64,000 nucleotides of DNA from Pirellulales bacterium. GTDB taxonomy: Bacteria; Planctomycetota; Planctomycetia; Pirellulales; PALSA-1355. Below are positions 52,818 through 56,114 of this stretch, in pieces. Location: NCBI GenBank assembly GCA_963733035.1, contig CAVTBU010000005.1, forward strand, positions 1,792,001 through 1,856,000. Direction: 5' to 3'. The position numbers and the translations under genes are program-made. Positions within the stretch are counted from its first letter, which is position 1, and every line of letters starts with the position of its first letter. Below the pieces are notes generated by a model that saw only the letters and a list, made by a program, of their open reading frames with translations, did not search any database and was not told the DNA's origin.

Positions 52818-54683
52818 CTACCGATCCTCGGCCTTGGCAAGTTCGAACGTGTCGAAGAGCCGGCCGTCGATGTCGTAGGCCTTGAAGACGATCGTGCGAT
52901 CGTGGATCGCCGCGTAGCAGTAGTGGAACGCCCGCTGGAAGTGCAGGTTGAACCAGGTCCGCTGCGGGGCCGCTTCTTCCAGGCCGCCGCCACCGCCGCC
53001 GCTGGTGATGTAGCGGACGCCCTGCTTGTGGTTGACGGCCATCTCGAAGATCGGCCAGGTCCGCTCGTAGTAGTGAATGTGGCCATTGAAGGCGATATCC
53101 ACGCCATGTTTTTCATAGAGCGGAATTAGCTTCTGAGCATCGACGTCGCCGTAGGTAAAGTTCTTGTCCTTGGCACCGCGCTCATGATCGCCGTAGTCGT
53201 TCTCCTCGGAGCTGAAGCAGGGGTGGTGATGGCACGTGAATTTCCAGGTGGCGGTTGAGGCCCCCAGTTCCTTGTCCAGCCATTCATATTGCGGTGAGCC
53301 CGGGTCGAGAGGCCGGTTGCTGTCGACCATGAAGAACTGGGCATTGCCGTATTTGAACGTGTAGTAATACTCCGGATCGGGCAGCGCGAAGTAGTCGTAG
53401 TACCAGTGCGAATCCTTTTCGTGGTTGCCGATCACCGGGAATGTGGGAACGTGCGACATCAGCCGTGAGCACGGTTCGAACAAATCCTTCACCCACTGGT
53501 GCTTGGCATAGCCGTCGTCGACGACGTCGCCGCAGTGCATCAAAAAGTCGGGCCGACGCGAATAGGCTCCGTCGGCGCACTTCCGCGTGACTTCCGGATT
53601 GCGTTGCGTATCGCCAATCACGGCGAACGCCCAGGCGCGGTCTGCGGCCGGCGCGGTTTGAAACGAGGAAAGCAGCCCGCGCACTTCGGCCCCCTTCTCG
53701 TTCGTGCAAGTGACGCGATAGAAATATCGCGTGCCGGTCTTCAGCCCGGTCAGCTTGACCGTGTTGATCAATTCCATGCCGTCCGACTCGGCGCCGTTTT
53801 CCAGCGGCTGCACCTCGGCATAGTCGACCCGCATCTTGGACGGCCGTGACGTCTCGCACATGACCTTTATTGAATCTTGCGTGGCGAACTGCAAGTAAGG
53901 CTGCACCACCAGCACCAGGTCCTTCTCGGGCGTCGGGTTCCAAGCGATCAGCTTGTCCCCTTTCTTGGCAACCGCGGCGATCTCTTCGGCCGCCAGTGTC
54001 CGGCCGTAGGCCTTCAGTTCGAACAAGGCGCCTTCCATCAAATCGTCGCCGCGACGGTCGAAGCGCGCCCCAATGACATACGGGGCATCGGCCGGATAAG
54101 CAATGTCGCCCGATTGCTCGAGGGACTCGGCCTCGGGCTTGCCGTTCACGTACAGCCGCATCGCGCTTCCATCGTAGGTTGCCACGACGAAGTACCAGCG
54201 TCCGCGCTCGATCTTGGTCTGGCTGAGCAAGTAGCCCACGCGGCGCGGCCCGCTAGGTTTCTCCGCCGCTAGAGCAAAGACGAAGGCACCGTGTCGAAAA
54301 CCCAACGTCCAGCCGCGGCCGCCGTCGTCATCTCCCCGGTAGCTGATGATCGTCCCCTGCTCCAGGTTGTCCTCCAACCGTACCCAGGCTGCGATCGACA
54401 TCTCCCGTTTCGGTAAATGCTGACGTGCCTCGTCGCTGTTTTGCGCCAGGGTCAGATACTCTTGTCCGCTGAACAGCAGCACTTCGGTTGGACCCGCGGT
54501 GGCGAAGCGGGGCGCGCCGTGAACTTGGGCCAACACCTGGTGCGAAACGTCCTGCCAGGCTCCGTTTTGGATCGGGTGCGTGCCAGCCGCAAAGTGGAAC
54601 AGCAGATCGTGTTCGACATGATCGGGGTGACCGAGCGCAGCGCCACCGAGCAAAAGGGTGGCGGATAGAGCCAAGGAAATCAT
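52818..54683 (-). CDS. Secreted metallophosphoesterase (LamG + FN3 + purple acid phosphatase-like)
   Basis: Signal peptide MISLALSATLL; LamG (W.FVVATYDG..MRLYVNG); GDTQ, GDVV, GNHE and GHIH.YER. Confidence 0.9.
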   Translation of the reverse strand: MISLALSATLLLGGAALGHPDHVEHDLLFHFAAGTHPIQNGAWQDVSHQVLAQVHGAPRFATAGPTEVLLFSGQEYLTLAQNSDEARQHLPKREMSIAAWVRLEDNLEQGTIISYRGDDDGGRGWTLGFRHGAFVFALAAEKPSGPRRVGYLLSQTKIERGRWYFVVATYDGSAMRLYVNGKPEAESLEQSGDIAYPADAPYVIGARFDRRGDDLMEGALFELKAYGRTLAAEEIAAVAKKGDKLIAWNPTPEKDLVLVVQPYLQFATQDSIKVMCETSRPSKMRVDYAEVQPLENGAESDGMELINTVKLTGLKTGTRYFYRVTCTNEKGAEVRGLLSSFQTAPAADRAWAFAVIGDTQRNPEVTRKCADGAYSRRPDFLMHCGDVVDDGYAKHQWVKDLFEPCSRLMSHVPTFPVIGNHEKDSHWYYDYFALPDPEYYYTFKYGNAQFFMVDSNRPLDPGSPQYEWLDKELGASTATWKFTCHHHPCFSSEENDYGDHERGAKDKNFTYGDVDAQKLIPLYEKHGVDIAFNGHIHYYERTWPIFEMAVNHKQGVRYITSGGGGGGLEEAAPQRTWFNLHFQRAFHYCYAAIHDRTIVFKAYDIDGRLFDTFELAKAEDR

Positions 54684-54946
54684 CGAGGAAACTCCGCGAG
54701 GTGGGACAATTGGCGGGCCTGAATACACTCCAGCAAACCCGGAACGTCGGCCAGAGTCAACCCGTCTCATGTCGTTGTCAGCAGACCGTTGGCGATTTTT
54801 CGCCTCGCTGAGCTCGGTGACTGGTTCCGTTGCTTGTCGGAGAGCAAGGGATTCGTCAACGAGATCATTGAAGAAGAGGTCGTGAATCATGACAGCGCGA
54901 GCGCGCGGAGCGAGCGCGCAGCGGCGCGCTGGCGAAGCAATAAAAA

Positions 54947-55326
54947 TGGTGCCGCTGGCCCGGTTGAGCCGGGATTGGACTCTGAAACGCTTGTTAAGGG
55001 TTAGTTGACCACTCCTCGACCATCGACCGAGAACAGCGGCACGCGGAACGGCCACCCGTTTTCGCTCAGGCGGTCGTTTCCAACCGTACGCCGTTCCCGC
55101 CGATCGGGACACGCCTGAGACTTGGGCAAAGCTCCCGCGGCACGACCTCCCACACCGCGCGCTATCTGCAGCTAGCGCTGGCGATCGGAGGAGCGTGGGT
55201 CGAGGACATAAGCGGCCGCGAAACGTTGTTCACGGAAATCACGTGCCGCTTGCGCCGGGGCTCAGACAAGCCGATCCTAACGCCCCGGGATTCACATCCT
55301 CGATAGCCACACAGGCCACCGGACTG
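54947..55326 (-). ncRNA. Candidate large structured non-coding RNA of unknown family
   Basis: About ten nested helices with strand-specific G-U pairs, a GAAA tetraloop, an upstream TTGAAA-N18-CACAAT promoter and a 3' ACCA followed by UUUUU. Ends are approximate. Confidence 0.6.
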
Positions 55327-55332
55327 CTCGCG

Positions 55333-55362
55333 ATTGTGCACCAGGTGCTGGCCCGATTTCAA
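55333..55362 (-). promoter_or_regulatory. Putative sigma70 promoter for the candidate ncRNA
   Basis: Minus strand TTGAAA (55362-55357), 18-nt spacer, CACAAT (55338-55333). Confidence 0.4.
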
Positions 55363-55462: not shown

Positions 55463-56114
55463 CTACTTCACCAGTTCCAGCGTGCCCCACAGGCTGGGAT
55501 CGGAGGCGAACGGGAATTCGCTGCCCAGACTGAAATACTGTTGGCCGAGCTCGCGATCGAACACGAAGTAAGTAAAGCCGATGCGCGGATGGTCGGCCGG
55601 GTTGAAGCCGGTCAGCGCGGCGGCGGGGATGAACAACGCCATCACGTAGCCACCCACGCGCCGTTCGAGCTTGATTTGCAATTGGCCAGGGCGCACCGGG
55701 TTGGCATTCTCGCGGGCGCGATCGACGAGCAGTTGGTCGGCGACGGGTTGTTCGTAGTTGCGGCCGGCGCCGCCCGGCAGGAAGACGAAACGGTGGCAAA
55801 AGCGGCTGGCGCGGTGGATGTTGTGGGTGTCGCGGGTATCGATCCAGACTTGCAGCGAGTCGCTGTCCTCGAGCTTTGTTTCGCGGCACCAGTTCGGATG
55901 TTTCTTCCCCTCGACGCGCACGCTGAAGCCCAGGCCGCCTTCGCTCCAGGCAGCGCGGACGTCGGCGATGGCGTTTTGTCCGTCCAGCTCGCCGAGCAAG
56001 GGCAGACGATAGGCCGGCTCCAGCTCGGCTGGGGCCCGCGCCGAGCGTGGGATCGTACAAGCAGGGGGCCGCGAAACGAAACAGAAAGCGGGTGGGCAAT
56101 AGTTGCGAGCTCAT
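55463..56114 (-). CDS. CBM9/DOMON-like domain protein with an apparent frameshift near 56033
   Basis: [14 protein letters not shown] (ATGA overlap with the uvrA stop) joins [50 protein letters not shown] across a GGGG run. Confidence 0.72.

Follow-up and report, generated by a model that had tools for sequence, protein, structure and literature searches.

The locus analyzed here raises the question of what is encoded by a stretch without an evident gene between two protein-coding genes of an uncultured Pirellulales bacterium and, if the product is an RNA, whether it would act on the gene next to it or elsewhere in the cell. The window, i.e., the whole stretch of DNA that was analyzed, comprises 64,000 nucleotides (GenBank assembly GCA_963733035.1, contig CAVTBU010000005.1, positions 1,792,001 to 1,856,000), and coordinates without a contig number are counted from its first letter. 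On the minus strand, a CBM9-like gene ends with the stop codon TAG at 55466-55464, and the gene for a protein with Laminin_G_3 and metallophosphoesterase domains most likely starts with the ATG at 54683, because DNA similarity to genomes of the same genus begins at 54698. The initial annotation of this DNA had noted a noncoding gap of about 780 bp between the two genes, and these two boundaries (stop, 55464; start, 54683) bear it out; the only open reading frames (ORFs) in the 780 bp are chance ones.

The gap harbors a repeated unit on the minus strand that extends from 55363 to about 54913-54898 and ends about 215 nt ahead of the phosphoesterase start (Table 1). Identity among the four copies of its subfamily, designated A, sets in sharply at C55363 and fades out between 54913 and 54898. 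Upstream of the sharp 5' boundary, an A/T-rich bias is the sole common feature of the flanks, and it may serve as an UP-like element. The promoter TTGAAA-N18-CACAAT, which had been proposed to lie just upstream of a structured RNA, was recovered exactly by a promoter scan (55362-55333, minus strand; 1 site versus 0.1 expected), and the RNA of the window copy would accordingly start at about 55328-55324. At the opposite end, an A copy has only a U-run and a short G+C hairpin past the 3' domain. A simple scan called no canonical terminator in the window copy, the hairpin at 54930-54913 included, and read-through from A-type copies may occur.

Table 1. Features of the window copy, in the order in which they are read on the minus strand
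Feature	Position	Strand	Basis or remark
-35 hexamer TTGAAA	55357..55362	-	Promoter scan; first bases of the repeated unit (start C55363); same hexamer in 15/15 copies
18-nt spacer	55339..55356	-	First 12 bases TCGGGCCAGCAC conserved; mark the lineage-specific promoter class
-10 hexamer CACAAT	55333..55338	-	Promoter scan
P1 hairpin GUGGCC / GGCUAU	55303..55319	-	5 pairs, 92% of cells paired
Junction domain P2/P3/P4	55200..55303	-	Eight-sequence alignment A4, covariation count
P2, closing P3 and P4	55303-55294 with 55209-55200	-	
P3	55288-55282 with 55261-55255	-	
P4	55251-55245 with 55216-55210	-	
P5 long hairpin CCUCC...GGAGG	55146..55191	-	Conserved flanks CUCC-GA and GUG-GGGAG
Rod	55043..55138	-	CUCAGG (55119-55114) / CCUGAG (55070-55065) plus GAAA-capped hairpin (55086-55071)
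Conserved 3' domain	54941..55051	-	Long irregular hairpin, A/U-rich apical loop, end ...GGCACCA, then UUUUU (54946-54942)
3' tail of the repeat	54898..54940	-	Short G+C hairpin 54930-54913

One salt-marsh metatranscriptome run, sequenced from a library that may contain DNA, yielded two 151-nt contigs inside the element at a depth of 2. The first corresponds to 54969-55119 with 1 mismatch; the second corresponds to 55159-55279 and, given its 10 mismatches, stems from a different copy. The flanks gave a single partial match of 36 nt (55466-55501). These contigs are a weak hint that the RNA is transcribed.

A dispersed family and its promoter class

The initial annotation had treated the element as a single locus, which did not hold: similarity, profile, and covariance-model searches of the bacterium's own genome (G000; 6.65 Mb in 10 contigs, 92% complete) revealed 15 full copies and 1 truncated copy, and a covariance model of the 3' domain (R1) retrieved exactly 15 loci in it, with E values from 5.8e-36 to 3.1e-22. 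Four subfamilies can be distinguished, i.e., A with four copies, B with seven, C/D/E with three, and F with one. The three further copies of subfamily A are 94 to 97% identical to the window copy. The seven full copies of subfamily B, to which the truncated one also belongs, are 97 to 99% identical to each other, and their similarity to A (about 80% identity) is limited to the first 50 nt or so and to a 3' block of about 90 nt. C, D, E, and F are diverged full-length members that were added by the profile search. The presence of a dispersed gene family instead of a single locus changes the question that has to be asked of this locus.

All copies have a unit length of 465 to 530 bp and begin with CTTGAAATC; they have the promoter, a 5' part of about 50 nt, and a 3' domain of about 110 nt in common, and their middles differ in sequence but are of similar length. 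The promoter layout is the same in every copy, namely, TTGAAA, an 18-nt spacer beginning with TCGGGCCA, and then CAnAnT, with the -10 words CATACT, CAAAAT, CAGACT, or GATAAT at unchanged spacing in the other subfamilies. At the position of the 3' tail of A, subfamily B ends in an 18-bp hairpin followed by U7. Insertions and deletions between subfamilies do not come in multiples of three, and the subfamilies have no ORF in common.

Within the genus, R1 detected five loci in genome G002 and three in G003 (E values from 1e-12 to 5.6e-7) and no copy in G001, which is 100% complete. Among 33 genomes of the taxonomic family, it returned one likely homolog in another genus (G042; E = 2.5e-4) together with weaker matches elsewhere. 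The G042 locus also has a promoter (TAGAAA-18-GATAAT) and matching 5' words, and the element is thus probably present in one other genus. The form found in G002 and G003 is longer, measuring about 570 to 600 nt from the promoter to the 3' domain, and has the junction words, the flanks of P5, and the 3' domain in common with subfamily A.

Broader searches extended this picture little. BLAST against 40 relatives produced no real match, the same-genus homologs being reached by the covariance model alone, and a sample of 150 genomes of the order (strict filters, 25 candidates scored per genome) returned only the own genus and one weak, palindromic match (G068). When 185,579 species genomes were scanned for exact matches to a 19-mer from the 3' domain, 64 matches were obtained, with about 70 expected by chance, and none of them had the second motif; a 20-mer of the same domain was absent from IMG/VR. 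A looser two-block pattern gave at least 114 matches and a three-block pattern at least 120 in metagenome contigs; among the matches listed, none of the 80 loci tested for the former passed R1, none of the 80 tested for the latter passed model R2, and neither scan has a bearing on the absence of the family. The metagenome DNA runs X1, X3, and X9 contained only fragments breaking at the element, as is expected for a repeat, and are uninformative with respect to habitat. The distribution is very narrow and so far comprises a few uncultured Pirellulales bacteria.

The promoter belongs to a class that is defined by TTGAAAT, the conserved spacer word GGCCAGC, and a -10 box after 18 nt. The pattern TTGAAWT-NN-RGCCASC plus a -10-like word occurs at 26 sites in G000, 8 in G001, 16 each in G002 and G003, and 5 in G042, and a reversed control pattern gave 0 sites in every one of these five genomes. 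RNA copies account for 16 of the 26 sites in G000. The class is not used by tRNA genes or by RNase P (located at G000 contig 5:577748). We read it as the strong consensus promoter of the lineage, and the RNA genes are therefore probably highly expressed. In view of the 26 sites versus 0 for the control, the motif could help to find highly expressed RNA genes in uncultured bacteria.

Promoters of this class were also observed in other settings. Two of the G000 sites lie within a phage-like head-gene cluster (contig 6:451339 and 459771; L283, L284, and L291), whose module (about 7300-19500 of L291, i.e., of contig 6:444001-464000) consists of terminase, lambda-type portal, cement protein, and capsid genes, with a short terminated leader behind the first promoter. 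The head cluster with the same two promoters is also found in G001 (L303 and L304), and one of the promoters is found in an IMG/VR contig (L292); the module could be either a prophage that has been conserved or a cluster akin to gene transfer agents. A sulfatase gene likewise lies behind a promoter of this class in the relatives. Further units of about 200 nt that occur repeatedly, with conserved bodies and no long ORF, follow such promoters in G001 (L297, L299, L301, L302, L298, and L300), which holds at least four copies of one of them, and in G002/G003 (L295, L296, L306, and L308). They may represent further multicopy noncoding RNA (ncRNA) families in the genus.

Additional repeats were seen in the vicinity of the copies. 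The truncated B copy consists of the first 248 nt together with 118 nt from the flank upstream of copy B_C5a and is followed by two ORFs of about 120 and 245 amino acids without a Pfam match and then by a complete B copy; the region (G000 contig 7:162262-164178; L031, 4000-5800) looks like a segmental duplication that was broken by an inserted two-gene cassette. Near copies C and E, a 2-kb segment is present in duplicate (98% identity; G000 contig 5:2646517-2648504 and 1083019-1085006; L279 and L280) and contains a 256-amino-acid acidic ORF behind the same promoter class and an ORF of about 400 amino acids, neither with a Pfam match. REP-like palindromic words, CCTTTGTGCCCTTGGTGG and relatives, adjoin copies A_C8 and A_C7 and four B copies in G000. 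Words of the CACCACAGAGGTCAC type cluster beside the RNA genes of G002/G003 (L116, L117, L121, and L104), where about 270 nt upstream of the promoter are also conserved between copies. ARAGORN predicted 96 tRNA or transfer-messenger RNA (tmRNA) genes in G000, a high number for a 6.6-Mb genome.

Fold and covariation

The gap had originally attracted attention by the proposal that its minus strand folds into ordered domains, and this proposal is well supported. The 416-nt stretch that had been singled out reaches -192.4 kcal/mol on the minus strand (z, -2.79; 0/100 shuffles as good), ahead of the plus strand (-170.4 kcal/mol; z, -1.39; 6/100 shuffles as good). Subfamily B reaches -219.8 kcal/mol in sense (z, -5.90) and -200.3 kcal/mol in antisense (z, -3.76) orientation, and no sense-strand advantage was found for the long form of G002 (z, -1.83 sense and -2.70 antisense).

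The helices of the initial annotation were all found where it had placed them, and comparison of paralogs and related genomes revealed compensatory changes in three separate counts, with support for P2, the base of P3, P4, P5, the rod helix, and the capped hairpin. In the 3' domain (six sequences), 87.3% of the cells are paired, versus 28 to 46% when the partner strand is slid; both partners have been exchanged in five pairs, two of which are C-G to U-A switches in the closing stem and one of which is a U·G to C-G switch in the core. In the P2/P3/P4 junction, aligned from four A copies and four G002/G003 types (alignment A4), the corresponding values are 88.5% and 33 to 46%, with double changes in 8 of 21 pairs and a covariation score that was reached by 0/500 shuffles, a control that ignores relatedness. 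Five of the ten P2 pairs have changed on both sides (92% of cells paired), P4 and the base of P3 are likewise supported in this count, and the inner five pairs of P2, which include the tandem U·G/G·U, hardly vary.

The third count, based on the four A copies and C, D, E, and F, covers P1, P5, the rod helix, and the GAAA-capped hairpin, for which 90.9% of the cells are paired versus 38 to 44% in the slid control, with double changes in 12 of 32 pairs. P5 contributes 6 of its 15 pairs (91.7% paired), and its motif also occurs in the long form of the relatives; the rod helix CUCAGG/CCUGAG contributes 3 of 6 (93.8% paired), as does the capped hairpin at 55086-55071 (85.4% paired). The 5' hairpin at 55319-55303, i.e., P1, is conserved, with G-U replaced by G-C on one side, but shows no double changes. 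The proposed rod holds with respect to CUCAGG/CCUGAG and the capped hairpin, both of which covary, but the single-sequence minimum-free-energy structure draws it differently. Its outer helices were traced in the sequence itself and are offset by one column from subfamily to subfamily, and the pair counts therefore cover only the CUCAGG/CCUGAG helix and the capped hairpin of the rod. RNAalifold, applied to the four A copies and C, D, E, and F, predicted 91 pairs, 29 of them with a compensatory change; some of its long-range pairs are probably alignment errors. Whole arms have been replaced between subfamilies, e.g., B lacks P3 and has an expanded P4 and the G002/G003 form has extra domains, and the core is unchanged. 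Since all of the covariation events come from paralogs and three or four related genomes, they are few and not independent of each other.

Selection at the RNA level on the minus strand, as initially suspected from the G-U pairs, is corroborated by the U·G to C-G switches, which are consistent only with this strand. These switches and the many G·U pairs, which would be A·C mismatches on the opposite strand, also weigh against interpreting the unit as a palindromic repeat of REP or BIME type that acts at the DNA level and has no RNA function. The words CCTTTGTGCCCTTGGTGG and their like beside several copies and the folding energy of the long form, which is not better on the sense strand, would fit such a repeat. 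However, the promoter has the same orientation in every copy, and the unit is multibranched rather than a simple palindrome, and we therefore regard a REP- or BIME-type repeat as very improbable.

Mobility and mode of action

The window copy sits exactly at a synteny break with G001 to G003 (window 54698 and 55458): in these genomes, the uvrA-like/CBM9 side and the phosphoesterase side are located on different contigs or far apart, and the element is on neither side. At four loci, G002/G003 carry the element whereas the orthologous sites of G000 are empty, the gaps measuring 82 to 818 bp versus 1.3 to 1.8 kb. Together with the sharp boundaries, the identity of 94 to 99% within subfamilies, and the one truncated copy, this presence/absence pattern and the position at the break could mean that the copies are selfish, nonautonomous mobile elements that carry, or are, a structured RNA gene and were spread in bursts by an enzyme encoded elsewhere. 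A candidate for such an enzyme is a Y1 (IS200-like) transposase gene of 153 amino acids that lies, in divergent orientation, 160 bp upstream of copy B_C8 (L275, 1405-1866 = G000 contig 8:11393-11854, minus strand); we estimate the probability of one such adjacency by chance at roughly 5%.

Several observations argue against transposition. Inspection by eye of the copy alignments with their 15 left flanks revealed neither terminal inverted repeats nor target duplications nor a word common to the flanks, and ordinary genes also use the promoter class with which the 5' boundary coincides. With respect to the enzyme, Y1 genes occur in all five genomes (2 to 10 each), including G001, which lacks the RNA, and no element was found beside the orthologs of the gene next to B_C8. 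Reverse transcriptase (RVT_1) gave no match in G000 (92% complete) or G003, and IS110 is absent from G002 and G003, all of them carriers of the RNA; TnpB is absent from all five genomes. An IS3-type integrase gene is present about 400 nt from copy F and beside no other copy. No cognate autonomous element with matching ends was seen: genome searches with nhmmer and the covariance model gave only the 15 copies and the truncated one, none of them joined to a transposase gene. Moreover, one locus is syntenic between species, copy A_C7 being located at the site orthologous to that of a G002 copy. In the seven B copies, all four allele combinations are seen for 25 of the 55 pairs of informative columns, from which we conclude that these copies exchange sequence by recombination. 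Duplication with gene conversion accounts for the data no less well than transposition does, and neither is proven. The selfish mobile unit is a serious rival to the reading that we prefer but, on balance, an unlikely one.

The initial annotation had left open whether the product is a trans-acting ncRNA or a long regulatory leader. The first option fits a freestanding structured RNA with its own promoter, and the second one has been weakened by the flanks of the copies, which were surveyed by ORF calls and Pfam. The neighboring genes are unrelated and encode a phosphoesterase, TfoX, an esterase, PTS EIIA, a P450, Rrf2, Dus, a ketoacyl synthase, IleRS, a sugar-phosphate isomerase-like protein, an ABC permease, a DNA methylase, an AAA ATPase, and an IS3 integrase. 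Eleven of the 15 copies point at the next gene, and four converge on their neighbor; all of the latter are B copies with a 75-nt REP-like extension. A riboswitch or other cis-acting leader is expected upstream of the genes of one pathway and always in their orientation, and the copies, with 11 of 15 co-oriented and unrelated Pfam neighbors, do not conform to this expectation. Both findings, the unrelated downstream genes and the convergence of 4 of the 15 copies on a neighbor, make a dedicated leader less plausible.

A more general variant would be a portable promoter with a long structured leader that drives or gates whichever gene lies downstream in cis. Such a cassette would account for the 11 co-oriented copies and for the location of an A-type copy without a canonical terminator about 215 nt before the phosphoesterase start, and the predominant orientation toward the next gene is one of the findings that count against the scaffold RNA proposed below, as do the folding energies of the long form and the presence or absence of nearly identical, sharply bounded copies between sister genomes; no partner protein was found for such a scaffold. 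On the other hand, the downstream genes have nothing in common, four copies face the wrong way, subfamily B ends in a strong terminator, the Rfam search revealed no riboswitch or T-box, and a covarying multidomain fold of 400 nt goes far beyond what a promoter cassette needs. Promoter donation with a gating leader accordingly appears quite unlikely to us.

The reading that we favor, with moderate confidence, is that the paralogs encode highly expressed scaffold RNAs acting in trans and that gene conversion keeps these genes alike. Each copy would be a complete transcription unit with a near-consensus, lineage-specific promoter, a folded body, and a 3' hairpin domain with a U-run or terminator, and the RNA would be about 380 to 430 nt long here and about 570 to 600 nt in the sister genomes, as judged from the predicted ends. 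The conserved core, made up of the P2 junction and its tandem G·U pairs, the flanks of P5, and the 3' domain, would be maintained by selection at the RNA level, and the peripheral arms appear to have been swapped between subfamilies. RNAs whose fold forms a defined three-dimensional body typically show such a conserved core with swapped arms, and we therefore infer that the RNA acts in trans as an abundant scaffold, presumably in a ribonucleoprotein or an RNA-only assembly. Neither a base-pairing small RNA nor a leader seems likely to us. Duplication would have given rise to the copies, with recombination or gene conversion keeping them alike.

More speculatively, the genus might maintain the 15-gene family for an abundant ornate RNA that builds an RNA-only or RNA-protein particle, with the arms as interchangeable modules, and the family might belong to a wider, hitherto undescribed set of multicopy ncRNA genes with one dedicated promoter class, just as eukaryotic snRNA genes share a promoter type. 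We consider this extended scenario a long shot.

Comparison with known RNAs

Rfam 15 produced no match in the whole window at the gathering score, which agrees with the initial failure to recognize a family and covers 6S RNA, tmRNA, RNase P, SRP, GOLLD, ROOL, OLE, raiA, HEARO, T-box, etc. Two junk matches (E values of 3.9 and 7.8) were the only ones at an E value of ≤10 between 54500 and 55600, and eight loci with other subfamilies and relatives had none at an E value of ≤1.

An expanded 6S-like RNA had been suggested on the basis of short sequence words. 6S RNA is about 180 to 200 nt long, forms a single long rod with a central bubble, binds the sigma-70 holoenzyme, and templates a product RNA. 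The family described here has multibranched folds of 380 to 570 nt, more than twice the length of 6S RNA, occurs in 15 diverged copies, and does not match the 6S model RF00013. The same model found no canonical 6S RNA in the whole of G000, which would favor the suggestion, but this absence carries little weight since RF00013 detected 6S RNA in just 5 of 14 control genomes. A 6S-like RNA that binds RNA polymerase is consequently the most improbable of the explanations considered.

Two other candidates were rejected. A tRNA-like or tmRNA-like 3' end, suggested by the ACCA with which A ends after a stem of 7 to 9 bp, does not agree with the different pairing register in C to F, the lack of ACCA in B, and the absence of an Rfam tmRNA match. 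A small ORF starting from the conserved AUG in P2 is conserved in neither sequence nor length and is absent from B.

Families of paralogous small RNAs such as Qrr, LhrC, and the csRNAs resemble the present one in that RNA genes with their own promoter and terminator are scattered or clustered in one genome. Those RNAs comprise about 100 nt with a simple fold and a shared seed, whereas the RNA described here has four to six times that length, and its peripheral arms are swapped around a junction core that is conserved. A comparison can also be made with putative mobile promoters and promoter-plus-leader repeats, as the repeat begins at the -35 box and points at the next gene in 11 of 15 cases, but they do not account for a covarying fold of about 400 nt, the strong terminator of subfamily B, and 4 of 15 copies that face away from any target gene. 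HEARO and omega RNAs of IscB and TnpB elements, including their protein-less miniatures, are likewise structured, a few hundred nucleotides long, and present in many copies per genome. In contrast to them, none of the five genomes has a TnpB-type gene, no Rfam HEARO match was obtained, the variable part is located in the middle of the RNA and not at one end as in a guide, and the unit carries a complete promoter of its own. HEARO has been described as the RNA of compact RNA-guided nucleases (available text of PMC9755519).

With respect to Planctomycetota, no described ncRNA family was found in full-text literature searches, the sole mention being a listed cis-regulatory candidate in the available text of PMC2864571. 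GOLLD, ROOL, and OLE are reported as homo-oligomeric complexes in the available text of PMC12286853.

In descriptive terms, and without implying homology, the family belongs to the large ornate ncRNAs: it is longer than 400 nt, noncoding, and composed of several covarying domains. Like GOLLD, ROOL, OLE, and raiA, it comprises several hundred nucleotides with multiple domains, covarying helices, and a GNRA-type tetraloop, and as with them, the sequence does not reveal its function. These four RNAs are usually present in a single copy, often located in prophages or beside tRNAs. The family described here matches none of their Rfam models and consists of 15 dispersed copies, each with its own promoter, within a very narrow distribution. 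To our knowledge, only few large structured bacterial RNAs of this enigmatic kind have been found, and each of those that have been studied revealed unexpected biology. Among them, the present family is unusual in its amplification to about 15 genes per genome, each with an independent promoter, in the exchangeable arms around its conserved core, and in its source, the Planctomycetota.
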